This document shows positions 3,755 to 64,000 of a DNA stretch of 64,000 nucleotides, in pieces; the stretch's first letter is position 1, and the number at the start of each line of letters is the position of its first letter. The notes under the pieces were generated by a model, which saw only the letters and a list, made by a program, of their open reading frames with translations, was not told where the DNA came from and did not search any database. A program made the position numbers and the translations under genes. This DNA comes from Cyanidioschyzon merolae (taxonomy: Eukaryota): the NCBI GenBank assembly GCA_000091205.1, contig AP006493.2; one strand, written 5' to 3'.

Positions 3755-4021
3755 CCAACTGCGCTCACGTATTTTGGCGCTATGCGGGAGTTCAACACAC
3801 TAGTGTGTCCCTAGGAGCTCTATGTATTCCTGATATGACGGGCGTCGATTCTCTGCGTGTCTGAACGCGCCCTCACGAACTTTTAAGATGGCCTTCCTCT
3901 GCGTGCTGAACGTCGTCGCTCGCAGACAGCCGCGGAATTTTTTGATTGACAAAACGTTTTCATGGGCCAGCTTTCGCCAGTTGTGCGCTTTTTCTTTTCT
4001 TTCTTTTTTTGTTTTCTTCTG

Positions 4022-4440
4022 TGCGCAGTGAAGTATCCATCGATCTGTGCCATAATTCCAAGTTACGTTACCCATCCTTCTTCTCCGATATACTGGTCTT
4101 TTCATACGTTCTATCGTGTACCGAGTGCCTGCCATGAGCTCCAGCAATAGCGCATACAGCACCGGTGCTGCCGCTGCACGGAGGCAGAACGGCGTTGCCG
4201 TACCACGGGGAGTATCAACTCGAGGCGTGATTCATTCAACGTGGAATCCGGATTCATAATCATTCTGGGAGCCTGCAAGCTCTGCAGACAGAACTACTGC
4301 CTGCGGCAGCGCGAAGCGATATGTTAGGAGAGAACTACGACCAGGGTGACGCCCAAACGCAGCATACCCGCTCCTAATCCCAGGATAAAGTGGGTTTCGG
4401 ACGAGCTGCTCAGACCTCTTGACAGCAACGGGCACTGGGG
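4022..4440 (-). mobile_element. SINE-like dispersed repeat, copy A of a ~400 bp family. Its T-rich tract on the + strand lies at the left end, which is an A-rich tail at the 3' end of the minus strand.
   Basis: Shares the core ctggtc(g/t)ttt(c)(a/g)tacgttctatcgtg...gcaccggtgctg(c/t)cg...cacgg(a/g)g with copies at 20440-20935, 48290-48700 (opposite orientation) and 53577-53770. A T-rich tract at 3985-4020 adjoins one end. The other end carries box-A/box-B-like strings when read on the minus strand. Confidence 0.5.
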
Positions 4441-5837
4441 AGCATGAAGCACGAGTCTTGTAGACTCTTCCGACTCGCGGGACCTTCCGTCTATAAGGTA
4501 AACTTTCAACAATATTGAAACCTCTTCCCCCTTTCAACGTTCACCTTAGAGGAGGGAAAGAAATTATTATATCGCTGCTAGTTAGTCTAGAGTCTCTGTT
4601 CTTTGTTCTAAGTAGCGCGCTCGGTACGCGCTGCTCCATATCTGAAAGGCATGAGATACAACGAGCTTTTCGCCGTTGAAGGGAAACACGATCCTGACTA
4701 TTCGTTTACTTGTTGTTCTAACATAAAACTTGTATTTGCATTAAAGTCGTAGCAAACTATAGTTTCCAGTTCAATCGTGTTTCAAAGCTCGAGTTAGTGC
4801 ATTCAAGTGATTTTTCGCAGATTCTACCAGAAGCGCTCAAAGTGCGTACGTTTTCAAAAAGATAAAAAAGGAAAGTTATTGAAAAGGAATTGGAGGATCC
4901 CGGAGACCCAGTATCGCCAGCTGGCGGAAATAAACGACAAACGATGCCGAGCCCGGAAGAAGAGGAGAAGATAAAGAAGGAAAAGGGGAGGCCCGACGCC
5001 AAGGGCCGCAAGAAAGACGACAGTACGATGAGACGGTGGTGGAAGCCTGTCTTCTTAAACATGTAAGGGATCCGCACAAGGAAAATTTGCAAGATGCCAT
5101 AAGAATTCGTGTCCAGTTGTACCCCAGGAGTGTTCGTAAGGTTTCTCTAGGACTGATGCATTTGGTGAACGAGATGTATGGCGACGTGACGGACATCAAA
5201 ACAGTCGAGGTTCTGGGAGACTTATTCGACAAGCCCTTTATTCGTCACCTGATGGCTGGCACCGGGGAAGCGTCGAGGAGAAATGAACTAGTGCATGCCC
5301 TCCAGGAAAACTAAGCCAAACTCCGATTCGACGGTACTCGCACTAGGGTTACTCGGATATTTACATCTACAGAGCGATGAAGTACCTCATGGGCCTGAAG
5401 AACCATATGATCGTGAGCCTCAGTCGTTTCGTGATACGCGACGCCTTTGCGCTGTACCCGGGCCTGTCTCGCAAAGGAATATGGGCAATTATCAATGGCA
5501 TCACTAACGATGGTCAGAACGAAGACGAGATCGAATTTGTCGACAAGAAGACATCAAGCAGGAGAAAGAATGAGGATCCTGCAATCCGTGCGGTTATTCA
5601 AGGGCATCGTGCGGTATTGGGGCCGGCGAATCCAGCAGAAAAGATATCAGAGTTGATAAAAGACGAAGAAAGATACCATCGCCTCATCCTTCGGTATTTC
5701 GCGTTTTTGGACCGAGAACTCGAACGCAAGGCAGAGATGAAGCTGAGTAGGGGAAAAATGAAGAGTCGGAGAGACGGAAGGCTGCCCTAATCGTTAAGCG
5801 CTTCACCGTCGTTTCGCTGTGCAACATCAAGTCATAA

Positions 5838-11715: not shown

Positions 11716-14287
11716 GGGTCCGGTATATGCTGATTGTTTGAGGCGATTTTTGGAGTAACGAAACCAGCCTTGTCGGAACGGATCGTATCCGAGAGGAGCT
11801 GCTGCGCGAGGGCTCAAACGATGCATACAGGTTCCTGTAGATGGTACATTTGCGCAGTGAACACCGTTTTCCTGGGGCGCATGTACGCCTGCAGAAGATC
11901 CACTTGAAAAATCAGAAGTTATGTACGCGAAGAGCTAACATGCGGAAGAGCAGTTCCGTTGTTTCTCAACCTCTGTGCGTCTGGGACATGCGAACGTTAA
12001 ACTTACTGAGCTTGCGTAAAGTGCCGCATGAAGAGCTGCGAAAATGACAAGACCATGCATACTGTCGTGAGCGCGGTGGACGCGATTGGCCACCTCTGGA
12101 CAATCTGTAGCGGAGTTGGGTGCGCTATCCTGCACTTGTATGGATTAGCACAGCGAACTTGGTGAAAAGGTGTTGTTCTTCAGTGGAAAGGCAGCCGCTT
12201 TACGCTCGCGCAGGGAATTCATCGACGAATCGTGGATGCGGTTCATGTGGTGAAAAGTTCCCGCCGAGAGTGGGAAATGATGATACTTTATGTTTTCGCG
12301 GAAGCTCCATCGAAGGAGAGAGGATTCATGCAGCAGTCGATCATCGATCGAGATCACACAACAGGCATTTGGAGATCGCTTAAAACTACTCAATATGGTT
12401 AACGGCACCAGAGTTTTCCAAAAATGTGCGAGCAAGAAGCAGCGTGATCCTGAAAGGGATAAGAGTAAAAGCCTTTGTGCCGAGCTTCAGGGTGCACTGG
12501 AAGCGATCCACATCGGTTGCATGGCATGTTGTTTAGGAGTTCAGCATCGAGCTCACTGCTACCGGCGACAACTCAGGCTGGATTTGTACTCAAGAGCCGT
12601 CCATAATGTAAACGCTCAATGGAGCGAAACTGTCTCACAACCATAGTGTAAATTAATACCTACCCACAGACGCCACGCAGCCTTTTTGACCAGCCGTATG
12701 CTATCTGTTACAGCTGCTGCTTGTACATCTCCAGCCTGAGAGGCTGCCCCACAAAGTTCGATAGTGTCTGATCCTTGGATCTCGTCTTCAGCAATCCACA
12801 TCGTCTGATGTTGACGGCGGTGTTGAAGTCTCGGTTTTACGGACTACATGCGTTTATTGCATCTGGTTGAGCTCATCAATGCAAGGATTCCCAGAACTCG
12901 CACCCTCTGGCCCACAGCAGCCTCTTCGTCGTCCCGTCGGGCATACACCTTTTTTTCTATGTCCCTTCTTTTTCGCATTCTTCTTTTTCACTTGCTTTTC
13001 GTCGTTAACTGGTCGGCAAGCTGCGGATGTTTTCACATTTTCCGGCAGCCGGCAATGGCGGAGCTCTAGGATGCCTCACTTCAATGCCAGTACCTTTCCC
13101 CTGGATTTTTTATTTCCTCAAATGAAAGCAGTTCTTTACGACCTTAAACGAGAGAGTTTCCAGAGGGAGACGGAATTGCAGAAGAAAGACGAAATGTGTT
13201 CCAGTCTGCCACCGTATACTGACCGCTTCAGCGATTCGCTCTGGAAAGCGACTGTTAAGTTTTGCGACAAAAGACCCTTCTTCGATATGGTCAAATCGTC
13301 GAGTCCACGCAGGAATGAAAAGCAGTTCTCCCCCAGTAGAATCCGCAAATGCTCAAACGCAAGAGGAACCGTGAAATGCAGCGTTGTCCGATAGACGGAC
13401 GTCGCCAGACGGCAGCGGAAAGTGTTTAGTTATTCGAAGATGTGGTTGGTACTGCTGGATGAGCCTTCTCTATGAGTGAAACTGATGCCACCAAATGAAT
13501 CCACTGCAGCGAGAACCGATGATGGCGCCCTTTTCTTAGAGTTCAGTCGAACATTCAACGGGCTACCGCTCCGCGAATTCCCATACATGCTCCGAAATTT
13601 TCGTCCGAAACACTCCTCATAGACTGAAAAAAAACCAACGTGCCGCTGCTTCATATCGATAGAACCTTTCCTGGAACTTTGTTGTAGTAGCGATTTCGGT
13701 AGACGCTGGCCGTGGATGAACTAGGACTCCTGTTTTGCGACTGAATCCCAGTGTTTTCAGCACAATATGAACAAGTTGTTGAGAGACAGAGACGCTCTTG
13801 GTGGCTAATATAGTTTCTTTCAGCTCCCGTAAGGTGATCAACAGCTCGTTTTCTATCTTTGACAGCAAGCAGTTCTCAGTAATATCGGTACTGGGCGCGG
13901 GTTGCATATACGTGTTTCTTTCTGTGCTCCTCAAGCACCTGCGTATTGTTATATCACTGAATTTAAGAAGGAAAACAGTCCTCGTCGCTCTGTTGAGCAA
14001 AGCATATGTCCTGCGAACAATTCGTGTATGGTATATAGAGTGCATTGCATCGTGATTTCGATTTCCTGATATACACTGCGAAATAATATTCTGTCACACT
14101 CAGCGGGGGCGGAATAAAACTCAGCAGAACGTTTATAAGGCTTGCAGATTCAGAAATGGGTTTTATGAAGCACTCTTGACGATGTCACAGACAGTCACTT
14201 TGTTCTCCAGGTTCGCACGGTTGAGCACTCGACATGCACCACAGAGATAATGAGCTAACTAGATACGTCACGAGGTTGCGGTTTGCC

Positions 14288-20439: not shown

Positions 20440-20935
20440 CCGCCGGGTTTTTTTTTGCCGATGCCGAAACGCTTTTATAAACCATCGATCCCAGATTGCC
20501 GGATGGATGGATTTTAGCTTTCGGGAAAGCGTCCATCATGCTGCCACACCAAGATCCATGACCTGTTCTCGGATGTAATGGTCTTTTTGTTCGTTCTATC
20601 GTGCACCCAGTACCTGGTTTGCCGCACCCGGCTTAACTCTTATATCTCGCTGGTGCCGATGCATCATGGAGACAGAGCGACTTTGCTGTGCCAGAGAGGG
20701 CATCGGCTAGAGGCGTGTTGCACTCGACACAGGATCGGAGAACACAAGCACTCTGGAAACCTGCAAGCTGTACATATAGCCCTGCTGTCTGTAGCAGCGC
20801 GAAGCTGTATGGTAGGAGTCTACTACGACTAGTGCAACGCCCAGGAAACGCTTTACGACTCCTAGTCCGAGAATAAACTGCGTTTCGAACGAGCTTCTCA
20901 GGTCTCTTCACAGCACTAGGCACTGGGAAACGTAT
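20440..20935 (-). mobile_element. SINE-like dispersed repeat, copy B
   Basis: Colinear with copy A (4022-4440), including ggtc-ttt-tgttcgttctatcgtg and gcaagct...gcagcgcgaagc...ctacgac. A T9 run at 20448-20456. Box-B-like cgttcgaaacg and box-A-like cctagtgctg on the minus strand near 20860-20930. Confidence 0.5.
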
Positions 20936-22247
20936 GTATCACTGGCCCGGAAGAGTCGTCCGGCTGCCTGGAGCTTTCCCCAAGAGCATAAACTATCGAG
21001 AATACGGAAACACTTTCACGTTTTTAACGTTTCCTGTAGTGGAGAAGTGAACTATTTTCGATCTGCCCTATGTGTAGGCCTCTGCCCGGAACATCGAATG
21101 CAGTGCACCGCGTGTATAGCCCTGTTTTAAAGGACACTGAGGAGACAAAAGCGAATGGCAAGTATGGTGTATTGAGCGCTGTCGACCGGCCGGAATGAAA
21201 TTTGAGGTCGAGTGTGGGAGCTATGGAGGGGATTCCTATCGCCAGCTGTTGCAAACTGGCAGCCGTAAGCGTTTCTAGTCAAGCACAGGGGCTCGTTTAT
21301 CGGTCGCTACCACCATAGCGTGAAAGCCTGCTGCAGATTCAAGTAGATACGGATTGAGGACTTGTCACTGGCGTGCGTCTCCACACCCGCTTTTCCAGGA
21401 GATCAGACTTCGTAAAAGAGGGCATTGTTTGGGCATACGAGTGCCGAGTGACTGAATGCGGGACCGCACGCCGTGCTCTCCTGGAGAGACCCTGAGTCTC
21501 AATGGTATCCATTTCGAAAGAACGTTCTGTTCTGGTCTGGAGCGCCCCGAGCGGCGCCCGTTTAGCTGTTGCTTCCGCGTTGGTCGAGACGCGTTTGCGG
21601 TAGTGCGGTCTACTGCTACAGCATCAATGGTATGGTGCTGTCACGCATGCAACTTGGAATCGTTTTAGCGATATTCACCTGAGCGGAAACTTGTCCCACG
21701 CAGAGTGGCCTGGCCATGGATATCGAGCGCAAAAACGCGATACGTCTAGCATGTTGGGCTGCCTTGCGAATTACCAATATTTTCTTGCCGTTTCGTGCCT
21801 CGGCGCTCTCATATAAGCAAATAGCACCCAATGCCTATGTGCGCCCACGCACAGTACGTAGTGATGCGTCCAGCCACACAAGTTGTGGCGACGTGCTGGT
21901 TCCATTTTGGGTAAAGGATCCTCATTGCTTTCCTTGTCTTGAAACATAGGACGTAATATGCGTGGTGCCGTGTCTCCAGAAGCACTCCAGTTCCTGTCAG
22001 CCGAGTATCGCGGTTTTCCTCATCTCAGAACATACGACGCGTGACGCGCTACACCTAGTCCGCTTCAAAGAAGCTTCGTCTTCCATCGTAACGAACGCAT
22101 GATTTTCTCATTCGTTTTGAAATCAATGCTCATGTGGAGATCTTCCACCTAGCCCATACAAAAGCGTTCTCGCTTTTAACAACGGCGAGCAAAAGCATAA
22201 CTGTATCTGTCTAGTCGCCAGAGAAATGGTGGACAGCAGCGAAGGCC

Positions 22248-32990: not shown

Positions 32991-34335
32991 TGCGTAACAC
33001 GAAACGAAACGTAACGAGGCGGAAGATAACACGCTTTGTGTAGCAGCAGCAGTAGTCGTCGTAGTCATACTAGAAGCTATCTCGATTGGCGTTGCTGTCA
33101 TCTGGCCCCAGCTCCCAGCATGAGCGGTGCCTTTAGGATGAGTGAGCTTATGGCATCTCGCATGAACCCTTTTTGAGACTGCCTGCTCTTTCCCTCTTCA
33201 GTCCGTCTGTTGCAATTGATCGTCCGTGCTTGAAGCTGCTTCGATCCCGTGCAACTATAGCAGCTGCTGCAGCAACCGTGCTCGTTCTGCGCAATAGTCA
33301 GGGACGCCGTCTCTGGACACACCGTACGGCAGATGATTCCACGTATCGTATGGCGTGGAATCACTTCAGGGCCAGTGCTTCACTCGGACAGAGAAAAGCC
33401 CAGTGCTGGCATGAATTGGCCATCAAGCAGGACATGCATCCTGCGAGGTTCTTTGAATCAATTTCTGAACTTCTGCAATAGGCGGGGGAAGATGGTACTC
33501 GTGACCACGCGCATATAAGAGTCATCCGCAAAACCGGATAGACGCTACCTGGGCGCTGCGGATGGAAATCCACTGAAAGCGTCAACAAGCGCACTTGGGT
33601 AGGCCAGCGATTACTGCACAAACGCAGTAGAAAGAGTGTCATCCATCGACTCGCACATGGTTCATTAAGCGACTAGCTCATGGATTGCTCAGAGGGTCCA
33701 TTTCGCAGGGGAACACTACAGATCGAAGCTCACTCAACGGGAACTGCGACCCGCGTTTCGAGGGATGCTTTTGGGTTCTCGAAAGGCTCTGCAAGTGGAG
33801 CGCTGGTGGGTTATGTGGACGGAAACCACCACTGCACACAGCAATGCTCGTAGATATTCTCCCGTATTTGAGAATAAAGGAACGGGAATGCAAAGCTTTG
33901 CGTGCGTACACGTGAATGCAGCCTATCACAGGCATCGCGGGTGTCTTCATGTTGCATTGGGCTGGAAGGTTAATTTGAGGGCGGAGCAAAACGTACCTTC
34001 CATAAACTTCTGCGATGCTGATGTCAAGAGATCTCGCGCATCCGCAACCTGTAAGCCGACCAATGCCCCGAGCGGTGCGCCCGGTACCCATTCGTGTTGT
34101 GTCTTGGGCAGATAATGTATACGGTGTGCTGCACTGAAACTAATGGGTTTAAAAGTATTCGTGGATTTACGTTACACCTCGAGTAGCGAATCGTGATTCG
34201 TTTCTGCATTTCCAACCTGATGCGAGCGGCGGCATCTAGACGGCATCGGGTACGATGCATCCCTCCGGCAGCAGGTAAAGCACAGACGCTGCGCGTTGAA
34301 TGTCTCTGGAAGGAACCCGATGCAGCTGTAGAACT

Positions 34336-34895
34336 TCGATGAGAGCAATATACATAGTGCAGAAATCGATTCTACACGATTCTCATCGGTGCGTTCGGGG
34401 CGAAACCCACACATCATGGCACCGGATGCACACTGCAACAGGCCGAGAAGAAGAGCTTGAAACCGAGCCGACTGCACGAGATGGTACGCTGCAATTTGGT
34501 CGAACGTCACATGGCGAGGCTACCGATGGCTGAAGCCTTGCACGTCTGTGATTCACTCTGCAACGGTGCGCGCGCAGACGTGCTGCACCGAGTCTTGAAC
34601 GACTTGTGAAACAGTCCAAGATATCTGGTGCCTCTGCGGCGTCCAGTGGATTTGTGTCGAACGAACGCTCATGGTAATCGTTTAGCGCACAGCGTAGGCA
34701 TTGGCTGAACGGCAGAAGACTTTCGATTGAGAAACCAGTCATCAGGAGCCAAACGATACGATGTTCGCCCGATGCAAATCACTGATGTGGAAAGAGATGG
34801 CAATCTCAAAGGGCTAGAGCGCCGTATATCGAGACTGTGATCGTTTTCCCATGGCAACTGCTTAACGATAGTGTTATTCGACTATTCGATGTTCC
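34336..34895. repeat. Left arm of a ~560 bp inverted repeat whose partner is at 43128-43688
   Basis: The reverse complement of 34336-34895 matches 43128-43688 base-for-base apart from a few SNPs. ORF translations in the two arms are identical except at 3 residues. Confidence 0.9.
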
Positions 34896-40988: not shown

Positions 40989-43076
40989 ATGGGAATAGCG
41001 GGATTCCAGCGCTGGTATCTGGAGAATTTCCCCAGCACAGTCGTTACGGTAACTGGGGAGAGCGCGCCTGAGCACTTTGACCACGTGCTTTTCGACCTGA
41101 ACCAGCTTATCCACTTGGCAGCGCGCGTCGCAAGAAACCGCGACCAGTTTTTCATCCGTTTATTCAGGTGGTTAGATAACATTCTTCGGCTTTGTGTACC
41201 GAAAAAGTCGGTCTTCATAGCGTTTGATGGCCCGGCGCCCTTGGCGAAGCTCGTTACGCAAAAGCGAAGGCGCGTCCTCGAGTCGAGGAAACTCCACCGC
41301 ACGCGCAAACGCAAACGACGTTGCGGCGTTGATGTGCTCAGCCTTTCGCCTGGAACAGAACTTATGCAGCTGACTTTGCAGGCTGTAGAATTTTACGTTT
41401 GTTCTCGACTGCAATCGAAGCGTCATTTGTACCAGAACGTGCGTTTCGTTGTGAGTGGTCCGACTGTTCCCGGCGAGGGCGAAATAAAAATCATCGACTA
41501 CATCCACCGCTATGTGGACCCGCAGCACTCCGTTGTCGTCATTGGCAGCGACGCTGATCTCGTGGTATTAGGACTGGCAACGCAGAAAGTTCGGAATTTC
41601 TTCGTCTTCGTTATCACTCCGCGAGCCAATATGCAGGACGCGCCCGAGCACGGGACTGCTCAGAAACGACAGGCTATAAGCGCCATCGTCATTAGCGTCT
41701 GGCAGTGGATTCGGGTTCTTGATCGTTTTTTCCCCGGTGAAACACCGTCTCTGCGTCTAGATCTGGTTGTGATGCTCATGATGCAGGGAAACGATTACTT
41801 GCCAAAGCTGCGCGGCACTTCATTTAATTCGATCTGGGAGGCGTACAAGGCTTTGAAATTGGACAAAGGGCCCATGCGAGGAAAATACCTCGTATGCAGA
41901 GAGCAGCGCAGTTTCGACTGGGAATTCCTGTACGCGCTCATGAAGCGCCTCATCAACCCGCTGGTCCCGAATCTTACGAAAGAGCTCATCGAAATGTATC
42001 GAGAAGCGAGCATACGTGGGCAAGAAGCGCTGAGACTCGCCCAAGCGGGGAATGCATCCGTAGAGGCCTCGTCATCCTGCGAATCCGAGTCAAAAGATTC
42101 AGTCGAACGCAACGTTCACCCGAGTGATCTGGAAGATGGCACCGAACCTGACGCTGCGCACGGCGAAATTTCGGCGGACGTCACGGATCCTGAGGATATT
42201 TTGGAGAAAGTGGATATACCGGAAGGCATATCGGTGGACGACGACGAGAAGCTGTACGACACAGAGGAATGGCTGCGAACGTTGCTTTGGGCGCTCGCGA
42301 TGTATATTGATGGATTCTGTCCCGATTTTTACCACACATATTCAAGGGCCTATGGACCATCGGCATCAGACATTGTTCGATGGCTTAAGGAGAACGACGG
42401 TGATCCGCTCCTGCAACTGCAACCGCCGTTGAGCGTTGCACCACCGCTACCACCGCACGCAGCGCTGTTAGCCCTGGTCCCGGCGAGCGCGGCGAGGCTT
42501 CTACCGCAGCCCATCTTCAAAAGAGTACTCTTGCGAAGTCAGCAGCAAGCCGAGAACTCCGAAAGCGCCGCAGAGATGGGAACGAATGCCGACGAGACTG
42601 CAAAACTGATCACATTCATCTTGCAAGATGACGGGCGACGCACGAATCGTTCACTTCTTTTGCGTGTTGTCGAAGGCATCCGCGATGACGAATACGAAGA
42701 AATCGAGAAGCATCGGACCCGGTTAAGCTCGTCGGTGGCTTTCGCACTTCGTCAGGGTGACATGTCTGGCAATGGTCGGACGTGCGCGAGCTCCCAGGAG
42801 CGGGCCCCAAAACTACCAGAGCCGCCTGTGCAACGGTTCGCCAAGCTGTCGCTGTCAGGTGCAGAGTTCAGCATTGAGGGCGTCCAACTTACAAGCACGC
42901 CGCCGTGTCGCTCATGGTGCTGGAGTACTGACGGGACGGAAGCGCGTCGAACGAGCAAAAAAGCGGTTTCGGTACAAAATCTGTCGTACAAGCGCGTATT
43001 TACCCGCAAAATACAATCGGAACGTTCTCAGCGGGACAGAAAACGCATCAACCATGCGACTGAAAGAAATCCTTAG
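40989..43076 (+). CDS. XRN: XRN-family 5'-3' exoribonuclease, short form (695 aa)
   Basis: Conserved N-terminal XRN blocks are all present: MGIAGFQRWYLENFP (compare MGVPKFFRW), FDLNQLIH (DMNGIIH), FIAFDGPAPLAKLVTQKRRR (AIDGVAPRAKMNQQR), VPGEGEIKIIDYI (PGEGEHKI) and IGSDADLVVLGLA (GLDADLIMLGL). Confidence 0.8.
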   Translation: MGIAGFQRWYLENFPSTVVTVTGESAPEHFDHVLFDLNQLIHLAARVARNRDQFFIRLFRWLDNILRLCVPKKSVFIAFDGPAPLAKLVTQKRRRVLESRKLHRTRKRKRRCGVDVLSLSPGTELMQLTLQAVEFYVCSRLQSKRHLYQNVRFVVSGPTVPGEGEIKIIDYIHRYVDPQHSVVVIGSDADLVVLGLATQKVRNFFVFVITPRANMQDAPEHGTAQKRQAISAIVISVWQWIRVLDRFFPGETPSLRLDLVVMLMMQGNDYLPKLRGTSFNSIWEAYKALKLDKGPMRGKYLVCREQRSFDWEFLYALMKRLINPLVPNLTKELIEMYREASIRGQEALRLAQAGNASVEASSSCESESKDSVERNVHPSDLEDGTEPDAAHGEISADVTDPEDILEKVDIPEGISVDDDEKLYDTEEWLRTLLWALAMYIDGFCPDFYHTYSRAYGPSASDIVRWLKENDGDPLLQLQPPLSVAPPLPPHAALLALVPASAARLLPQPIFKRVLLRSQQQAENSESAAEMGTNADETAKLITFILQDDGRRTNRSLLLRVVEGIRDDEYEEIEKHRTRLSSSVAFALRQGDMSGNGRTCASSQERAPKLPEPPVQRFAKLSLSGAEFSIEGVQLTSTPPCRSWCWSTDGTEARRTSKKAVSVQNLSYKRVFTRKIQSERSQRDRKRINHATERNP

Positions 43077-43127: not shown

Positions 43128-43688
43128 GGAACATCGAATAGTCGAATAACACTATCGTTAAGCAGTTGCCATGGGAAAACGATCACAGTCTCGATATACG
43201 GCGCTCTAGCCCTTTGAGATTGCCATCTCTTTCCACATCAGTGATTTGCATCGGGCGAACATCGTATCGTTTGGCTCCTGATGACTGGTTTCTCAATCGA
43301 AAGTCTTCTGCCGTTCAGCCAATGCCTACGCTGTGCGCTAAACGATTACCATGAGCGTTCGTTCGACACAAATCCACTGGACGCCGCAGAGGCACCAGAT
43401 ATCTTGGACTGTTTCACAAGTCGTTCAAGACTCGGTGCAGCGCGTCTGCGCGCGCACCGTTGCAGAGTGAATCACAGACGTGCAAGGCTTCAGCCATCGG
43501 TAGCCTCGCCATGTGACGTTCGACCAAATTGCAGCGTACCATCTCGTGCAGTCGGCTCGGTTTCAAGCTCTTCTTCTCGGCCTGTTGCAGTGTGCATCCG
43601 GTGCCATGATGTGTGGGTGTCGACCCGAACGCATCGATGAGAATCGTGTAGAATCGATTTCTGCACTATGTATATTGCTCTCATCGAA
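43128..43688. repeat. Right arm of the ~560 bp inverted repeat whose partner is at 34336-34895
   Basis: See the left-arm entry. The inner ends face the 8,232 bp spacer. Confidence 0.9.
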
Positions 43689-48289: not shown

Positions 48290-48700
48290 CGTCCGTGTGC
48301 CAGGCCTCGTCTTCATGTTTTCGAAAGCATACGCATGCGAGACGCAAGCTTTGCGTTCCGAAGGAGTTTACGATCTAACACCTGCGGTTGCGCTCAGCAC
48401 AGACTTCGCAGGCCACCTGCTGTCGGTGCTTCGGGCGGATGCATCCGACTCATCCTCGAGCCGACGCCTTTTGTGGTACGGTAACGCCGTTCTGTCTCGG
48501 TGCAGCGACAGCACCGGCGCTGTAGGCGCTATTGCTGCCGCTTTCGGCAGGCTCGGCACACGATAGGACGTACGAAACGACCAGAATATCCGAGATGAAG
48601 TATAGGTAATATAACATGGGAGTAGGGGGTTGATGGATACCTCACCTCGCACTGAAAAAAATAACACAAAAAAGTAAGAAAAGAAAAATGCGCATAATCG
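48290..48700 (+). mobile_element. SINE-like dispersed repeat, copy D, in opposite orientation to copies A to C, with an A-rich tail at 48655-48700
   Basis: The reverse complement of 48480-48640 matches ctggtcgtttcgtacgtcctatcgtg...gcaatagcgc-tacagcgccggtgctgtcgctgcac of copy A. An A-rich stretch gaaaaaaataacacaaaaaagtaagaaaagaaaaa follows. Confidence 0.5.
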
Positions 48701-48845
48701 GAGAACGCTGGCCTATGGAAACGTTTTGCCAATGGAAAAAAATCCGACTCGTATGCAATCGCGAACGTCGCGAAAGCAGCTCCTAGAAGGATTCTTTCTG
48801 TGGCAGCAGCGGAGCTTGGTGGACGGCAGGTGTTCGCGGTGTCGC

Positions 48846-53476: not shown

Positions 53477-53576
53477 GCAGACGGCTAACAGCTGAACCCC
53501 GATCTATAACGTTTCGATGAGAATGTTTCTTATTTGACAAAAATCTTTACACAAGCCAGCGTTCCCCGATTGTGTG

Positions 53577-53770
53577 CTTGGTATCAGCGCGCAGTAAAGC
53601 ATCCGTCGTTCCACCTAATTCCAAGTTCCATTACCCATTTTTTCTCGGATATACTGGTCGTTTCGTACGTTCTATCGTGCGCCTAGTGCATGCTGTGGGC
53701 GTCCGCGGTAGCGCCAAGAGCGCCGGTGCTGTCGTAGCACGGGGACAGGACGGTTTTACCGTCCACAAAG
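53577..53770 (-). mobile_element. SINE-like dispersed repeat, copy C (partial or diverged)
   Basis: gcgcagtaaagcatccgtcgttccacctaattccaagttccattacccattttttctcggatatactggtcgtttcgtacgttctatcgtg...gcgccggtgctgtcgtagcacgggga is colinear with copy A at 4022-4200. Confidence 0.5.
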
Positions 53771-54636
53771 AGCGACGGCAAACGAGGGTAAACTGATACA
53801 AACGCGCAGACGCCTCCCAGCCTTTCGACAAGCCACCTACTATCAGCTTCGGCTTCTCCTTGCACACCTCTACCCCGAGAGCCTACCCCACAAAGTTGTA
53901 TCCTATCAGCCCCTCGGGTCTCTTCTTCAGCAAAGCATATCTCATGATATTGTTGGCGGCGTTGACGTCGCCGTTCAAGAACTCGATGCGGTTTACTGCC
54001 TCTACTGGAACTCATCAGCGCAAGAGTACCTCGAGCGCGTGCCTTCTTTGCCACCAAAGTCTCGATATCGTCCTGTCGGGCAAAGAATCCTTTTCTCGCG
54101 TATCTCTCTTCTTCTTCTTCGCTCGATGCTCGGCGAAAGTGGATTTTTAGCGGGTCCGAGCTGAATTCGTTGGGATTTTTAGCGTTTTCTTCGGCAGTCG
54201 ACGATGATGGCCCTCCGGGATCCCCAACTTCCATGTCTGTAGTGTTCCCTCGGATTTGTTAAGTTTACAAATGAACGCACGTTGAACATGTCTGCTACAG
54301 ACTGCGACGAAGCATTTGATGACACGCACCTGGGGACGGGACACGATTGCGTTGAAGAACTGCAGGAAATCGGGTAGCGGCCCGTGCTCCCCAGCGAGAC
54401 CCCATGAAGTGCAGATGACATGCAGGCCCTTGCGGCCGTCGCGGCGGGCGATTGCGCCCAGCGCGCCACCGACTGCTAATCGGTGCGTACACGGACACGT
54501 GTTCATGGGGCGCGCCGATCGCCTGAGCGACCGGTCGCTCGGGCGATCCGGACAGTCGAGGGGTCCGCGTGGCGGCGGGGCGCGCATGAGGCCCTGCGCC
54601 TGCTGCCCGCAACGCTGACCGCATGAACGGTGCTGC

Positions 54637-56545: not shown

Positions 56546-57874
56546 TTACGGCCGCTGTAAGCTGTCCGGTTTCGCGCCGAGCTGCTCCCGCTGATGCGGC
56601 ACATCCAAGCGTCCTAGATCGTATTTAGGCACAATGCCACTGGGATTCAAAGGAAACAAGGATTTGAAATAGCTATTCGCAGTTTCTTTGACATCGAAGG
56701 TGTGAGACACCTCAGCTGCGTACGTTTGGATCATATCACGCATCCAAGCGTGCAGGTTTGGAAACTCTGTGATCTTTCGCTGACAGCAGCGAAAGAGCGT
56801 ATGATATACAGAATCGAAGCGAATCAGGGTCGGAAATAGAAATATATCACTTTCACTAGGATATGGCGTGCCGCTCACGTACCGCTGGCCCGCGAGCCTC
56901 TGTTCCAGCTCCGCGAGCGTCTGGAATACACTCCGCTCGGCATCCTCGTAAGCAGCCTGCGTCCTCGCGAATCCGACCTTGTAGACTCCGTTGTTCAGAT
57001 TATCGTGAATCCATGTTTTGTCAGCTTCAATTTGCGACTGATATTCTGCAGGGAAAGGGTCGATGCCGCTGGGAGTCTGCCGTTCGGTCGCGATATGCCG
57101 CATGAAGCGGACGATATCTGCTGACTCGTTCGAGACGATGAGGCCAGAGCGGGCGTCCACCAAGAGCGGGGCAGTAGCACGCCCCCGAAAAGAGGGATCG
57201 GCATTACGGTAGATTTGTTTCAAGTCGCGGGCCGATCGATACGTGGCTGGCAGACGCTCGTTGGCGTCTTCTGCGTTAGAACGCGAACCTACCGGCCTGA
57301 GCACCCACTTGCCTTCCGGGGAAGGATATACACGCACCGGAACTATAATGCGAGAAGCATTAGAGTTATCTGTCAGGCGGTGGAATGCCGCGGCTAGTAA
57401 ACATCGATGACACCAGGGACACTCGATTCCATAAAACAGGAGGAACTGGTCTTCTTCGAATGAACCCGTCCAGATCTGGTCCTTGTAGCCACTTGATAGA
57501 TACGAAGGCGGCGGGCGTTCATATGATCCGGTACCCTTCCTAGTAGGGGCGAGTTGTGACATCATAAGGTGCCAGAGCTGTCGCCAAAACAGCCGCGCCA
57601 TTCGCACTAAAAGCTCAAAAGGAACCGCGGAGGACAGGATACCCGCCCCACTGTTCCTCCGAACCGTGCGCTCGTCCATTCGACATACAATCGTCGTAGG
57701 CAGTTGACGCGTTCGGCGCGAATTCCTCCTATTTGGCGTTCGTAGCAGCTTGGCGCTATGGGAGCGAATCGGCGACACCGGTGGCCTCCGCCGGGATTGC
57801 GAGCCACAAGTGCTCAGAACAAACAACGCGTGGCTGGTCTTTGACGATTTAAGCGTCATTTTGCTTTTCTGCAC
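56546..57874 (-). CDS. Xi-class glutathione transferase / glutathionyl-hydroquinone reductase (ECM4/YqjG-like)
   Basis: A CPWCHR active-site motif (CPWAHR in the family) within FLLFYGIECPWCHRCLLAAAF. A C-terminal GST alpha-helical domain with RFDSVYHTLF-type segments. Confidence 0.7.
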   Translation of the reverse strand: MQKSKMTLKSSKTSHALFVLSTCGSQSRRRPPVSPIRSHSAKLLRTPNRRNSRRTRQLPTTIVCRMDERTVRRNSGAGILSSAVPFELLVRMARLFWRQLWHLMMSQLAPTRKGTGSYERPPPSYLSSGYKDQIWTGSFEEDQFLLFYGIECPWCHRCLLAAAFHRLTDNSNASRIIVPVRVYPSPEGKWVLRPVGSRSNAEDANERLPATYRSARDLKQIYRNADPSFRGRATAPLLVDARSGLIVSNESADIVRFMRHIATERQTPSGIDPFPAEYQSQIEADKTWIHDNLNNGVYKVGFARTQAAYEDAERSVFQTLAELEQRLAGQRYVSGTPYPSESDIFLFPTLIRFDSVYHTLFRCCQRKITEFPNLHAWMRDMIQTYAAEVSHTFDVKETANSYFKSLFPLNPSGIVPKYDLGRLDVPHQREQLGAKPDSLQRP

Positions 57875-57925: not shown

Positions 57926-59107
57926 TTGAACAGTATTGCCAGGAGCTATGGATTACACAGCCGCTGCATCTCCCGACGTGTGACGTGCAGCTGCGGGTAC
58001 AGCGCCCTCGACATGACGACTGCCATCATAGTTCATATATGGATAAAATTACTAGCACATGATCCTCAACCTCCCAGGCGATCTGCCGCGGAGCTCAGCG
58101 AGCACTGCCCTCTTTGTTTTCAGGCTCCGCTGGACAGGCTCATGTTCATCGTTAACAGTTTCCGAAATAGCTCTCAAAAGAGGCCCTTTGTTCGTAGAAG
58201 ACAGCCTATAGGTTTGAGCGTGCGTCCGAAACGCTGGTGTCGCACGCATGGCCTCGTGCTTGCGGAACACGAGGCGCCGGGGCGCCGGGCACCTCAAAAA
58301 CCTGCGATCAGCCTCCGCCTGGAGGTGGCAAAGTCTGCGGCGAGTATAGCTTGTGCACTCTTGTTTGCACTTGTTTGCGAAGACCAAGCTCGAAATGGTT
58401 TGAGCTCCAGTGGAACATCGTTAGCATCTGCGGCGATGGAGTCGAGCTTTTGCGGGACGACGAGCGAGGCGAGGCCTGCTGCCTCCGAAGGAACATGTAT
58501 TCAGAGGTTCCTGGAATCTCTGCAAATTCCTGGAGCGTTTGCCGCGGATCTAACTGGATTTGTCGAAGATGACACTGGAACCTCTCCAGGAAGCGTGGTT
58601 TCGCGAGTAAATAGCTCGCTGCAGGCTTTGGTTCAGAATACTGGTTACCGGGTTTTCATCCTAATAAAACGTGACATTCCACTCGGAACGGACTTGAATA
58701 GTCTCGCTCGGGAGGTTTATGAGTCAAAGAATGGTGATGGCAATCTTCTTGTTCTTGTTTTGAATCCGAAGACAGCCAAGGGAGGGTATTACGCAGGTGA
58801 TCAAGTGCAGAGAGCCATCCCAAACTCTGTTTTGATGAGCATCGCGAACGAGACCTATCCGTTCAACACACTGCAGGGCAAGTATGGTGCTGCACTTCTG
58901 GACGTTACCAACAGACTGGAGGCCGTTCTCTCGGGTCGCGATGACCCTGGCCCTCCGGTCGTTCGCAAATCTGAGAAGGTGGCCTCTTTTAAGACAAGAG
59001 AGGAGACCGAGAGTCAGCGAAAGAAATATGTGGGCGTCGTCGCCACTCTGCTGATCATCAGCGTCGTCGCGCCTATGGCGCAGTACTTTTGGTACCAGCG
59101 AAAATAG
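57926..59107 (+). CDS. TPM-domain protein (TLP18.3/Psb32/MOLO-1-like) with a C-terminal TM anchor
   Basis: GYRVFILIKRDIPLGTDLNSLAREVYE...GNLLVLVLNPKTAKGGYYAGDQVQRAIPNSVL resembles the TPM fold block (vvvv...p..d...a..l...w.....ngvlllv...dr...i.tG.g). Then a Lys-rich linker and the TM helix YVGVVATLLIISVVAPMAQYFWY. Confidence 0.4.
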   Translation: MNSIARSYGLHSRCISRRVTCSCGYSALDMTTAIIVHIWIKLLAHDPQPPRRSAAELSEHCPLCFQAPLDRLMFIVNSFRNSSQKRPFVRRRQPIGLSVRPKRWCRTHGLVLAEHEAPGRRAPQKPAISLRLEVAKSAASIACALLFALVCEDQARNGLSSSGTSLASAAMESSFCGTTSEARPAASEGTCIQRFLESLQIPGAFAADLTGFVEDDTGTSPGSVVSRVNSSLQALVQNTGYRVFILIKRDIPLGTDLNSLAREVYESKNGDGNLLVLVLNPKTAKGGYYAGDQVQRAIPNSVLMSIANETYPFNTLQGKYGAALLDVTNRLEAVLSGRDDPGPPVVRKSEKVASFKTREETESQRKKYVGVVATLLIISVVAPMAQYFWYQRK

Positions 59108-59237
59108 CGCCCACAGCGTGCACGCTGGGTGCAGCGGCAGACATACTCGGCGAGTCAGGTGCTGGAGGCTGGACTTGTCACGGGGCGTCCGCCAGAGGTC
59201 TCTGTGTTGCCGCTGCGCTCGAACGGAACGCAGTCGC

Positions 59238-61364
59238 CTATCTTGCTTTAGAGCACGCGACCGTCTGTAGCATACTGGGGCCCTCCAGGGACACGGAACG
59301 CACTAGCGCCGCTTTGGGTAGGGCAGGCAGTGTCTGTCCCGGCAAAGCGGTGACGCTCGTGAAGTATCCACGCCGCTGCGTCCTCGCGCGGAGGCCCGGC
59401 GGGAGGGAGAAACCCTTCCCCAGCAGGCCACAGCAGCCGCAGCAGCATCTCCAAATGCAAGTTCGGCAGCAGCACAATAGCAAAAGAATGAGGAACAACA
59501 GGCCAATAAAAAACAAAATGTTCAGGATGCACACATTGGCGAAGATGCACCCAATATCCAGGAGCCCGCCGCAACTACCGCAACCGCCTGATGGGTACGG
59601 TGAACTTCCGGTATGCGTTAGGTTTCCAGATGTCGTCGATGCGCTGCCCCCTTGCGCGCCATCCGTAGTCCGCACACTACTAGCGTTAAATTCGAGAACG
59701 AGGACGTCCAGAACTTGACCCAGGGCGTTCCGCAATGTGCAGTTGCACACACCTGCTCCACCGGTCGCCTTGGTTTCTATAATAGGCAATGAAATTGAAA
59801 CAAGTTGACCCGGCGCTAGCGTCACGATCTGAGCCTGAATAGGTTCAACGTTAGGTTCACAGGATGCACTGACTGTAAACTGAGCCGCATTCTGTCCAGT
59901 TCCTTCAGAAACTATCCAAAGATCAATTAAACCTCCTTTCGATTGTGAAGTGAACGGATTAATCTTCGATAGATGACGTAGAAATCGAGCGGGTGCCAAA
60001 TAAATAGTGTAAAACAACTCCTCAGCCGCGAACTGTAGCACAACCTCAGTTGCTTGAGTCCGGTTTGTGAAAAACCGTAACAGTGGATTCCGTGGTGTCA
60101 ATCCACTGACGTCAAAATCACCAAAAAACTGGACAAAATAACTGCCAACCTTTCCGGTTTGCTCAAGAGCAAGATCCGAGTCATAGTAATCCTGAAGTTG
60201 ATCGTGGAGACATGATTGCGTTGGTCGCTCGCATCGCTGCCCCTCATTTGTGAATGCACTGTAACTAACACCAATCTTATCGCAAGTGTCTCCAGTGATC
60301 GTAACTAGATCGTTATCGATGAGCATCCACCGGTTTATCTCGGTGGGAATATAGGAAATTCGATCCACACACCAAGCCTCAGAGGTGTCGGTGCAGACTG
60401 AAGGAACGAAGAAGAGTTTCTCTGAGTATGATGGAGTTCCCTCCCACGGAGCAAAGTCACCAATCGCTTGAGCGCTTATTTTCCCGTTCGAGGCATAACC
60501 AATAGGAGAACTCGGTGAGAGTGAAATGATCTCGGTCGAGCAGTTTTGAATAGCTTGATCCTGATTTCCAACGAGCCCAGAAATTGATTTGATAGTACTG
60601 TTGGCGAGGGGGCATTTGGTAACGTTCACAAGAATTACAAAATTGACGTCGGGTTCGCCAATTTGGAAAGCAGAATACCACAAACTATCAAATCGCAAAC
60701 AGTGTGCTGACTCAGTGGGGTTATCAAAGTTGAGCAGACTGCAATCCAGTCCGCCACGAATTCTGTTTGGCGACAGCCCCAGTAAATCCCCAGCATTGCA
60801 ATCACAGCAGAAGCCTTGGGAGTAGAGTATCCGGTCTGCTGGTTTCGTTGACCAGCTGGGATTGTAAGCGTAACCGCATGTTGGGTCACTGCTGCCCCAG
60901 GTTGCGACGCACTGGTTATCCAGCCAGTTCAACGGACCCTTCTGGTTGTACTTGTAAACGATTTCATAGGGTTTGTTGTTAAAATCGCTTTGATAGTAAA
61001 GAGGGTAGTCCAGCCGTATCCTAGACTTTGTCAGTGTGATATGCACCTGATACTTGAAAGCGTACACTGTGTTAGGATTATCCGCCGATCGTACCGTTGC
61101 GTTCGCTGAACTGCTGCCGTACACGGCCTGGGTCGCACTTACGGAGGACGAGGCTGCCGTGGCTCCGTTTTCTACAGCTAGGGTAAGCACCCATTTTTTT
61201 GAGCAAGGAATGCTTCCTGGCCTCCCAGAATCCAGACAAGTAACTATACTTCCGACACCAGTAAGTGAGCCTCCGACGGAGGCAGAAAAAAACGGTGCTA
61301 CTAGCCACAGTGGGACTTGGAAAAATAGTAGCACGAATAGACTCCGCCGAAAGATAACCTTCAT
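59238..61364 (-). CDS. HAP2: Probable HAP2/GCS1 gamete fusogen. The ORF track runs to 61517; a signal-peptide start MKVIFRRSLFVLLFFQVPLWLVAPFFSA is at 61364.
   Basis: A type I topology: signal peptide, a ~600 aa Cys-containing ectodomain, one TM (ILNILFFIGLLFLILLLL) and a poly-Cys juxtamembrane tail (CCCRTCIWRCCCGCCG). The ectodomain contains SQGFCCDCNAGD...RGGLDC...SAHCLRFDSLWYSAFQIGEPDVNFVILVNV, matching my recollection of the HAP2-GCS1 domain core (QGFCCxC ... aHClrFd..WYsvf.iG.p). Confidence 0.65.
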   Translation of the reverse strand: MKVIFRRSLFVLLFFQVPLWLVAPFFSASVGGSLTGVGSIVTCLDSGRPGSIPCSKKWVLTLAVENGATAASSSVSATQAVYGSSSANATVRSADNPNTVYAFKYQVHITLTKSRIRLDYPLYYQSDFNNKPYEIVYKYNQKGPLNWLDNQCVATWGSSDPTCGYAYNPSWSTKPADRILYSQGFCCDCNAGDLLGLSPNRIRGGLDCSLLNFDNPTESAHCLRFDSLWYSAFQIGEPDVNFVILVNVTKCPLANSTIKSISGLVGNQDQAIQNCSTEIISLSPSSPIGYASNGKISAQAIGDFAPWEGTPSYSEKLFFVPSVCTDTSEAWCVDRISYIPTEINRWMLIDNDLVTITGDTCDKIGVSYSAFTNEGQRCERPTQSCLHDQLQDYYDSDLALEQTGKVGSYFVQFFGDFDVSGLTPRNPLLRFFTNRTQATEVVLQFAAEELFYTIYLAPARFLRHLSKINPFTSQSKGGLIDLWIVSEGTGQNAAQFTVSASCEPNVEPIQAQIVTLAPGQLVSISLPIIETKATGGAGVCNCTLRNALGQVLDVLVLEFNASSVRTTDGAQGGSASTTSGNLTHTGSSPYPSGGCGSCGGLLDIGCIFANVCILNILFFIGLLFLILLLLCCCRTCIWRCCCGCCGLLGKGFSLPPGLRARTQRRGYFTSVTALPGQTLPALPKAALVRSVSLEGPSMLQTVACSKAR

Positions 61365-61642
61365 AGGAGAAGAAAAGCATACTCGAAAATAAGCAGTTGC
61401 AATGCTAGGTGGAGTTAAGAATCGGAAGGTATTCACTGGGACTATGAAAACACACTTACGTCCGGCCCTCATCGGGCAGAAAAACACCGCGGTCTCGCTG
61501 CGATTTGACTCATCCAAAGGTCGCGAAGATCCGATGGGCGAGGAATGGGTCGCAAAAGTACATCAAGTGTGCAAGTGTGTAAAACATTTTTCTCGAAAAT
61601 CAGTAAAATACATTCTCGTTCTCCTTCACGTAACAGAATTCA

Positions 61643-64000
61643 ATGATCTGTTTTAGCCTGTTTCGCATAGTTTCCAAGCTGTCGCTTGCAGCACTCTTGT
61701 GGCTTGTACTGCATTTTCTTCAAAAAGAAATCCTCGGAACCTCGCCAGCTGTGCAGATGAATGTAGTCCCTGAGGTTGCTCGGGCATCAGGGAATACGTC
61801 ACCTCTTTTCCTTTTCTATGAAGAATGTGGGGGGGCAAATTGGACTCTGAATCGCTTTTGCTCGAGCAATTGTTGGACTTCAAACTCTTCTCCTTGTGGA
61901 AGTTCAGATGATTGGATATTTGTTGACTGCACTTCAGCTGGACAAGTTTCAGGGCTCCATCTTGAACATGAAAATATATATTGTGGAGGGATCCCGGAGG
62001 AACTTGCATCGCTTGGTTATCTAAGTACGCTGGACCTGAGTTACAACCCAGATCTTCGTACAGTAATACCAACTTGGATATCGAATTTCACGAATCTCGT
62101 TGAGTTAAAATTTGAGGATTCTGGATTCTATGGTGAGGTGCCTGATAGCATCTGTATGTTACGTAGCCTTTCTTCTCTCAAAGGGAGGGAAAATGATCTT
62201 TCCGGAACAATTCCTGATTGTATAGGAGAGTTGAAATACTTGCATGATTTAAGTTTCGCGAGCAATGAAATGTCTGGCCAAATACCCGATTCTATTGGAA
62301 ATTGCAGCAATTTATATTTCTTGGACCTTAGTAACAACAATTTCTCGGGAACACTTCCGGATAGTATCGTCTACATGAAGAACTTGCAGATACTCGACTT
62401 ATCATACAATAGCCTCGAAGGCACTCTTCCGGAACTCTTCGGATTCAGCGAGCTGCAATTGCTCCTTCTCGGTCACAACAATTTCAGTGGCACCATACCG
62501 GAGTTGCCTCCGAACCTAGTCGCCGTGGACTTCTCGAGCAACAATTTCAGTGGACAAGTTCCCATTCTGCCCTCTACAGTAACAAGCGCCAACTTTACCG
62601 GAAATCACTTCAGCTGCCCGATCCCATTGGGATCCATATATGACACGGCGTCATGCATATGTCCCGCCGGCTGGGCTGGTAACCGTACGACATGCAAACA
62701 GTGTAGTCCCGGCACTATCGCACCCACAGATGGTTCTAGTGTTTGCATGGCGTGCCCCAACGGAACGTTTGCAAATGCATCGACAAGCTTCAGATTTTGT
62801 GGTACATGCCCTGCGGGAAGCTTTGCTGTATCCCCAGCCGGAAACTGCTCAATCTGTCCAAAAGGAACCTATCAGCAGTCGCGCGGTAGTTCCCAGTGCA
62901 ATACCTGCGCCCCAGGCTATTTCACGGACGAACTTGGAGCGAGCTCCTGCAAAATATGCCTGGCAGGATCTTATGCAGAACTAGCTGGAAGCACGGAGTG
63001 CAAAGCCTGCGCCCCGGGAACCTACGCAGCGAGTAACGGATCGACTTCGTGTCAAGCATGCGCAGCGGGCTCCTACGCCGGCAACTATAGCTCTGCTACA
63101 TGTCAGATATGCCCGGCAGGATCTTATGCAGAACTAGCTGGAAGCACGGAGTGCAAAGCCTGCGCCCCGGGAACCTACGCAGCGAGTAACGGATCGACTT
63201 CGTGTCAAGCATGCGCAGCGGGCTCCTACGCCGGCAACTACAACTCTACAGCGTGCGAGATATGCCCGGCGGGATCTTATGCAGAACTAGCTGGAAGCAC
63301 GGAGTGCAAAGCCTGCGCCCCAGGAACCTACGCAGCGAGTAACGGGTCGACCTCGTGTCAGACGTGCAAAGCGGGCTCCTACGCGGGCAACTACAACTCT
63401 ACAGCGTGCGAGATATGCCCGGCAGGATCTTATGCAGAACTAGCTGGAAGCACGGAGTGCAAAGCCTGCGCCCCAGGAACCTACGCAGCGAGTAACGGAT
63501 CGACTTCGTGTCAAGCATGCGCAGCGGGCTCCTACGCCGGCAACTATAGCTCTGCTACATGTCAGATATGCCCCGCGGGAACGTATGCAGCGAGTGAGGG
63601 TTCAAGTTCATGTGAGCCCTGTCCACCGGGGAGTTCCGGGAACTCTATTGGATCCAAGTCATGCTCACTATGTCCGGCTGGCTCGTTCGCAGCTTCAAAT
63701 GGGTCCACTATGTGCCAAAAATGCCCAGCCGGTTACTTCAGTGACACGCCCGGGGCTGCAGCTTGCAAACCATGTCCTCTGGGCGTCTTTGCAAGTTCAG
63801 AGGGCTCTCGTGCGTGCTCCTTATGTCCGGCAGGGCAGTATGCGCCAGTCAATGGATCCGTCTTTTGCTTGAACTGTCCGCCGGGGAGCTTTTCGAATCA
63901 CTCTGGAGCGTCTACGTGCTACCAGTGCGGCGCAGGCTACTTCTCAGACACGCGTGGCTCCACGAGCTGTAAGCTGTGTCCTTTGGGAACTTTTTCCGCT
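61643..64000 (+). CDS. Secreted/receptor-like protein: plant-type LRR N-terminal domain followed by ephrin-receptor-like / TNFR-type Cys-rich repeats. It is 5'-partial in this window and runs off the end.
   Basis: Signal peptide MICFSLFRIVSKLSLAALLWLVLHF. LRRNT-like C...W..V.C, then LxxLxLxxNxLsGxIP repeats (LSGTIPDCIGELKYLHDLSFASNEMSGQIPDSIGNCSNLYFLDLSNNNFSGTLPDSI). Then more than 20 copies of CxxCxxGTY/SYA...GS(T/S)xC modules. No stop codon before position 64000. Confidence 0.75.
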   Translation, partial: MICFSLFRIVSKLSLAALLWLVLHFLQKEILGTSPAVQMNVVPEVARASGNTSPLFLFYEECGGANWTLNRFCSSNCWTSNSSPCGSSDDWIFVDCTSAGQVSGLHLEHENIYCGGIPEELASLGYLSTLDLSYNPDLRTVIPTWISNFTNLVELKFEDSGFYGEVPDSICMLRSLSSLKGRENDLSGTIPDCIGELKYLHDLSFASNEMSGQIPDSIGNCSNLYFLDLSNNNFSGTLPDSIVYMKNLQILDLSYNSLEGTLPELFGFSELQLLLLGHNNFSGTIPELPPNLVAVDFSSNNFSGQVPILPSTVTSANFTGNHFSCPIPLGSIYDTASCICPAGWAGNRTTCKQCSPGTIAPTDGSSVCMACPNGTFANASTSFRFCGTCPAGSFAVSPAGNCSICPKGTYQQSRGSSQCNTCAPGYFTDELGASSCKICLAGSYAELAGSTECKACAPGTYAASNGSTSCQACAAGSYAGNYSSATCQICPAGSYAELAGSTECKACAPGTYAASNGSTSCQACAAGSYAGNYNSTACEICPAGSYAELAGSTECKACAPGTYAASNGSTSCQTCKAGSYAGNYNSTACEICPAGSYAELAGSTECKACAPGTYAASNGSTSCQACAAGSYAGNYSSATCQICPAGTYAASEGSSSCEPCPPGSSGNSIGSKSCSLCPAGSFAASNGSTMCQKCPAGYFSDTPGAAACKPCPLGVFASSEGSRACSLCPAGQYAPVNGSVFCLNCPPGSFSNHSGASTCYQCGAGYFSDTRGSTSCKLCPLGTFSA
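62954..63566 (+). repeat. Four near-identical 153 bp (51 aa) in-frame tandem repeats inside the Cys-rich repeat region of the LRR receptor-like gene
   Basis: Unit starts are at 62954, 63107, 63260 and 63413; a diverged fifth unit starts at 63566. The units differ by only a few bases, for example ctggcagg versus ccggcagg versus ccggcggg. Confidence 0.85.

Follow-up and report, generated by a model that had tools for sequence, protein, structure and literature searches.

Does the long open reading frame (ORF) on the minus strand at 59238..61364 of the 64-kb window (the whole stretch of DNA analysed here, from the red alga Cyanidioschyzon merolae) encode a gamete-fusion protein of the HAP2/GCS1 family, and does it mark a sexual cycle in this organism? 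Both had been suggested in an earlier note made from the sequence alone. The gene is locus CMK076C of C. merolae strain 10D (locus name as in PMC13353863), and the HAP2/GCS1 call is correct: its product matches the Pfam model PF10699 over its full length and is identical to the C. merolae HAP2 that has been crystallised. The gene was, however, already known, and its structure had been solved. We put at about 95% the probability that CMK076C is the single HAP2/GCS1 gene of strain 10D and that its product, a type I membrane glycoprotein, works as a gamete (cell-cell) fusogen of the class II type.

Gene call and family membership

The coding sequence is a single intron-free ORF that runs from ATG to TAG over 708 codons, and an exact-sequence look-up matched the 708-amino-acid (aa) product over its full length to BAM80469.1, XP_005536505.1 and UniProt M1V8A6, which shows the window to belong to the nuclear genome of strain 10D. 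Product names differ between the databases: NCBI gives 'hypothetical protein, conserved', and UniProt cites the HAP2 domain. A mechanical ORF list opens the frame further upstream, at a TTG at 61517 (759 aa), but the deposited protein begins at the ATG at 61364 and a hydrophobic signal peptide starts at the same codon, so the longer version was rejected as the gene and the ATG was taken as the HAP2 start. Some metagenome gene callers also push the ORF of HAP2 relatives upstream, to 731–744 aa; the added stretch differs from one idiomorph to the other, the idiomorphs being the two alternative forms of the adjoining candidate mating-type region described below, and is not conserved. Overlapping ORFs of 62–209 aa, found on either strand within 59089-61656, were regarded as by-products of the long ORF; none of four related contigs has a gene called there.

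The Pfam search that had been proposed as a check was positive. A single match was returned by hmmscan, to PF10699 (HAP2-GCS1), with E = 5.5e-170 and 566.7 bits, where the gathering score is 27.4 bits; it covers model positions 1–515 of 515 and aa 51–613 of the protein (59526..61214, minus strand, as are all features of the HAP2 gene given below). The proposed test for a class II fusogen fold was also positive. Residues 28–564 are 100% identical to chain A of PDB entry 7S0K ('HAP2-GCS1 domain-containing protein'), the sole mismatch in the alignment being R565 against H, the first residue of the C-terminal tag of the construct. Since 7S0K is a crystal structure of the identical sequence, the fold was taken from experiment rather than from prediction: it consists of three beta-rich domains, D1, D2 and D3, and its fusion loops sit at the D2 tip.

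Protein architecture and motifs

The layout is that of a type I membrane protein, with a signal peptide, a large ectodomain, one transmembrane (TM) segment and a cytoplasmic tail. The signal peptide (aa 1–27, MKVIFRRSLFVLLFFQVPLWLVAPFFS; 61284..61364) lies in an N-terminal hydrophobic stretch at about aa 3–30 and is predicted by SignalP as Sec/SPI in the supplement of PMC13353863 (Data Set S8), and the crystallised part begins at A28. The ectodomain (aa 28–564, domain order D2-D1-D3; 59673..61283) corresponds to the crystallised construct and holds 19 Cys. A single TM helix at about aa 604–630 (59475..59555) is strongly hydrophobic, with a Kyte-Doolittle 19-mer peak of 3.14, and Phobius gives one TM segment for CMK076C in the same supplement. 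Directly after the helix comes a juxtamembrane cytoplasmic Cys cluster, CCCRTCIWRCCCGCC (aa 631–645; 59430..59474), and the remaining tail (aa 646–708; 59241..59429) is identical in 9 of 9 aligned environmental relatives. By analogy with Chlamydomonas HAP2, CCCRTCIWRCCCGCC may plausibly be a site of palmitoylation with a part in targeting. The signal peptide, the Cys-containing ectodomain, the single TM segment and the Cys-cluster tail are all present as the earlier note had described them, and so are the four motifs that it had matched to the core of the HAP2-GCS1 domain, which fall within aa 183–248: QGFCCDC at aa 183–189 (60798-60818), RGG at aa 203–205 (60750-60758), SAHCLRFDSLWYSAFQIGEP at aa 219–238 (60651-60710) and FVILVNV at aa 242–248 (60621-60641).

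Three fusion loops were defined in C. merolae HAP2 by Feng et al. (2022; PMC9279424), and because these authors number residues from XP_005536505.1, as in this ORF, the ranges carry over unchanged: FL1 at aa 190–198 (60771..60797), directly after QGFCCDC, FL2 at aa 209–214 (60723..60740) and FL3 at aa 143–149 (60918..60938). Baquero et al. (2019; PMC6327110) describe a strictly conserved Arg-Glu salt bridge that links the cd loop to strand b, R185-E126 in Chlamydomonas, as a feature that sets HAP2 apart from other class II proteins. In phmmer alignments with 5MF1, 6DBS and 6E18, R203 of C. merolae HAP2 (NRIRGGLDC; 60756..60758) aligns with R185 (ERTRANLDC), so that the RGG motif includes the hallmark arginine, and E134 (KPYE; 60963..60965) aligns with E126 (KPLE), its salt-bridge partner. 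Both equivalent residues are also carried by the Trypanosoma cruzi protein 5OW4. Judged by alignment, C. merolae HAP2 would therefore possess the HAP2-specific E/R pair.

Published structure and proposed fusion mechanism

The structural work of Feng et al. (Nat Commun 13:4064; CMK076C, XP_005536505.1, PDB 7S0K) concerns the same gene, with no difference, and provided the first prefusion HAP2 structure. Residues 28–564 were expressed, and at 2.3 Å the protein is monomeric, in an extended prefusion state with its domains in the order D2-D1-D3. Acidic pH together with detergent micelles (dodecyl maltoside, DDM) turns the monomer into a postfusion-like trimer; fusion-loop mutants fail to trimerise, and an FL1 mutant abolishes DDM-induced trimerisation (PMC9279424).

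A working cycle for the CMK076C product can be proposed along these lines. The 27-residue signal peptide would direct HAP2 into the secretory pathway, and on the surface of haploid cells the protein would stand as an extended, metastable D2-D1-D3 monomer held by one TM anchor, which is followed by the Cys-rich cytoplasmic segment. Its fusion loops would insert into the membrane of the partner cell, monomers would join through the tips of D2 to form trimers, and D3 would fold back over D1 and D2, the two bilayers being drawn together until they merge. The sequence of events follows the mechanism of class II proteins in general, in the form put forward in PMC9279424.

Other solved HAP2 ectodomains also match the protein. 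The top non-self match among solved structures is T. cruzi HAP2 (5OW4, E = 2e-64), a member of the same Pfam family, and its alignment extends through the stem and TM region. Chlamydomonas reinhardtii HAP2 (5MF1, 6DBS, 6E18; E about 2e-48 to 7e-48) is similar over the whole ectodomain; the two proteins have in common the D1-D2-D3 class II architecture, a disulphide-rich D2.2, the E/R pair, one TM helix and a Cys-containing cytoplasmic tail. They differ in that FL1 and FL2 of C. merolae HAP2 are shorter, by 4 and 6 residues respectively, and in that C. merolae HAP2 has a third hydrophobic loop, FL3 (PMC9279424). C. merolae HAP2, moreover, crystallised in the form of a prefusion monomer; for Chlamydomonas HAP2, only the postfusion trimer has been seen. 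With Arabidopsis thaliana HAP2/GCS1 (5OW3, E = 8e-27), of the same family, the phmmer alignment starts only at about aa 281; membrane-insertion loops vary by lineage, and in Arabidopsis one amphipathic helix serves this purpose (PMC6327110). Class II fusion proteins of viruses, such as flavivirus E and alphavirus E1, have the three-domain beta-rich fold in common with HAP2, and the proposed mechanism of loop insertion, trimerisation and D3 fold-back as well (PMC9279424). No sequence similarity between them and C. merolae HAP2 was detectable in our searches, and two features belong to HAP2 specifically, namely the E/R salt bridge and the PF10699 ij-loop motif (PMC6327110).

Sexual cycle and expression of HAP2

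According to a 2026 Plant Cell paper (PMC13353863), the only return of a literature search for CMK076C, strain 10D is clonal and haploid, and diploids arise when it mates with haploid cells whose mating type is the opposite one. It mates with Ha2, Ha3 and Ha15, which are haploids derived from the diploid strain MS1, but not with the MS1 haploids Ha5 and Ha6, and two mating types are recognised on this ground (PMC13353863). By demonstrating that 10D mates, the paper gives experimental support to the claim of a sexual cycle marked by this gene; that fusion needs HAP2 is probable by orthology.

The published mRNA levels of CMK076C, in transcripts per million (TPM), are about 16 for the diploid MS1 and, among haploids, about 64 for Ha3 and about 110 for 10D, with false discovery rates against the diploid of 2e-75 for Ha3 and 8e-157 for 10D (Data Set S8, PMC13353863). 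For CMK078C, the neighbouring gene transcribed in the opposite direction, the corresponding values are about 18 TPM in the diploid, about 100 in Ha3 and about 25 in 10D (Data Set S8, PMC13353863). HAP2 expression is haploid-biased, yet the gene is transcribed in both mating types. In Chlamydomonas, HAP2 is expressed solely in minus gametes. The C. merolae gene differs from this one-sided pattern in having mRNA in haploids of either type, and it further differs from its Chlamydomonas counterpart in that its 5' end falls inside the mating-type region.

The candidate mating-type region

The two types diverge in structure at one place only, between CMK076C and CMK078C, in a stretch that measures about 1 kb in 10D as against about 2.6 kb in MS1 Ha3 (PMC13353863); this is a candidate mating-type region. 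We mapped its limits by comparing the window with four environmental (metagenome) contigs, two of the alternative type (L001 and L002) and two of the 10D type (L003 and L004). Both alternative-type contigs follow the window at about 99% identity as far as 61262-61265; in one of them 99% identity resumes at 62276, with 2,623 unrelated bases in place of 1,010 in the window. This 2,623-bp alternative idiomorph occupies positions 108-2730 of L001 and is also found in L002. The metagenomes containing both idiomorphs are JGI 3300005573 and 3300054705 and ENA ERZ27247235 and ERZ27249350. For both 10D-type contigs, collinearity with the window is unbroken, at 98.8–99.2% identity. The 10D-type idiomorph is accordingly placed at 61266..62275 (1,010 bp, no strand assigned); the mapped sizes agree with the published ones, and the window coordinates come from the present analysis.

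The 10D-type idiomorph holds HAP2 codons 1–33, the 278-bp divergent intergenic region between HAP2 and CMK078C (61365..61642), which is presumably a bidirectional promoter, and approximately the first 211 codons of CMK078C. HAP2 codons 1–33 encode the signal peptide plus six residues, and the idiomorph affects only these codons and the promoter of HAP2. The same division appears in a 90%-identity cluster of HAP2 proteins, in which environmental relatives have two discrete N-termini, the 10D type MKVIFRR...SASVGGS and MRIHLAKIISFTLFVAVLWKVFGCNAA, both of which meet the common sequence at LTGVGS, residue 34. The MRIHLAKIISFTLFVAVLWKVFGCNAA type is the MS1 Ha3 allele of Fig. S9 in PMC13353863. 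A comparison of one idiomorph with the other at the nucleotide level (blastn, word size 7) detected no similarity, the best E being about 1, and the N-termini of CMK078C, which carry leucine-rich repeats (LRRs), are homologous between the idiomorphs at the protein level only (tblastx, 4e-36, about 35% identity).

Single-nucleotide polymorphisms (SNPs) in the HAP2 coding sequence were also compared between the window (59238-61265) and the four contigs. Position 61263 alone tracks the idiomorph; SNPs from 61221 on are common to both types, and at 61125 each of the four combinations is seen. Sharing of SNPs across types suggests recombination up to about 40–140 bp from the idiomorph boundary, and hence a mature fusogen that would not be mating-type-specific, or else chimeric metagenome assemblies. 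Mating-type-specific regulation has been proposed in PMC13353863, and for HAP2 it would act through the idiomorphic promoter and signal peptide. We advance only tentatively, and as more doubtful than probable, a model in which mating type in C. merolae is set by exchanging the cis-regulatory DNA of HAP2, its signal peptide and, along with them, the CMK078C LRR ectodomain, and not by a master transcription factor. Because the mature fusogen is nearly the same and its mRNA is present in both types, both partners may deploy HAP2, as in Tetrahymena, with recognition falling to the CMK078C alleles.

Alternative explanations

Several observations weigh against the reading of CMK076C as the fusogen that C. 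merolae uses in mating. No HAP2 knockout or antibody-blocking experiment in this alga was found in the literature searched, so its role in vivo is deduced from orthology. Trimerisation was obtained with detergent micelles only, and not with membranes or cells (PMC9279424). HAP2 mRNA is found in vegetative haploids of both mating types, unlike the one-sided situation in Chlamydomonas and plants, so that either partner may be the one that uses the protein. One alternative is a true HAP2 orthologue that is a relic or has been repurposed, for example for other membrane remodelling, while mating relies on a different fusogen. Such an explanation could draw on the literature searched, which yielded no test of the gene by genetic means in C. 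merolae, on transcription in haploid cultures that were not mating, and on GEX1, which was not detected in the Data Set S1 rows for C. merolae 10D and Cc. yangmingshanensis, so that the canonical fertilisation toolkit looks incomplete in those rows. We nevertheless hold it to be improbable. The ectodomain is under constraint, nine environmental relatives being 95–100% identical, with the fusion loops, all Cys, E134 and R203 intact; the recombinant protein retains fusion-loop-dependent trimerisation (PMC9279424); expression is haploid-biased, at 4- to 7-fold over the diploid; and the position of the gene at the mating-type region (PMC13353863) is hard to explain if it has nothing to do with mating.

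A chance resemblance to HAP2, or a pseudogene, is less credible still, to the point of being negligible. We found no support for it, the product name in NCBI being the sole hint in that direction. The reading is refuted by the Pfam match (E = 5.5e-170), the identity with the PDB entry and the exact protein match; the 708 codons are uninterrupted, the gene is transcribed, and its product could be expressed in folded form and crystallised. We thus retain CMK076C as a genuine HAP2, probably the fusogen used in C. merolae mating.

Neighbouring genes and the rest of the window

CMK078C starts at the ATG at 61643 on the plus strand and runs off the end of the window (61643..64000). It is receptor-like, with a signal peptide and LRRs followed by ephrin-receptor-like/TNFR Cys-rich repeats; the Pfam matches are LRR_8, Ephrin_rec_like (16 stretches) and TNFR. 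As the two mating-type alleles share only about 35% identity in the LRR N-terminus and MS1 Ha3 exceeds 10D about 4-fold in mRNA of the gene (PMC13353863), CMK078C is a plausible candidate for a partner-recognition receptor. A tandem repeat with a 153-bp (51-codon) unit, in 4.2 copies at 91% identity, occupies 62954-63590 in its Cys-rich repeat region and looks like a recent in-frame expansion or homogenisation. The next gene, CMK079C, lies just past the right end of the window (931-2103 in L003; 823-1995 in L004) and encodes a C2H2 zinc-finger protein that is strongly diploid-specific, at about 165 TPM in the diploid and about 1 TPM in haploids (PMC13353863); a phase-specific transcription factor thus stands two genes away from HAP2. 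Downstream of HAP2 are CMK075C, a called gene with a TPM domain (58142-59107, plus strand), and CMK074C, a glutathione S-transferase (GST) gene (within 56546-57874, minus strand). The order HAP2, CMK075C, CMK074C is kept in 4 of 4 environmental contigs.

Elsewhere in the 64-kb window, a 561-bp inverted duplication (34335-34895 and 43128-43688) has copies about 8 kb apart that are 99.3% identical. Each copy bears the same 119-aa ORF, neither has an Rfam match, and one lies just downstream of a 695-aa ORF (40989-43076). Comparison of the window with itself also revealed dispersed repeats of 180–480 bp that are 68–80% identical (3933-4554, 12645-12974, 20566-21044, 48460-48746 and 53570-54117), a family that could be the remnant of an old mobile element or a low-complexity coding segment that the copies share. 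A tRNA scan of the entire window found no tRNA genes, and an Rfam scan of the same extent found no family at the gathering score. GC content ranges from 47 to 58%, without marked skew.

Significance

HAP2 is the ancestral eukaryotic gamete fusogen, and its occurrence in a red alga that is very reduced and branched off early has for this reason long been read as a hint of cryptic sex, a hint confirmed experimentally in 2026 (PMC13353863). The HAP2 finding is already known, on the structural side since 2022 and on the side of the sexual cycle since 2026. The interest that remains lies in the adjacent mating-type idiomorph of about 1 kb, which contains the promoter and the signal peptide of HAP2. 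In the literature searched, we found no report on the need for HAP2 in just one partner or in both, or on recognition mediated by the LRR receptor. C. merolae is genetically tractable, so both the one- or two-partner need for HAP2 and recognition by the LRR receptor are directly testable in this organism.

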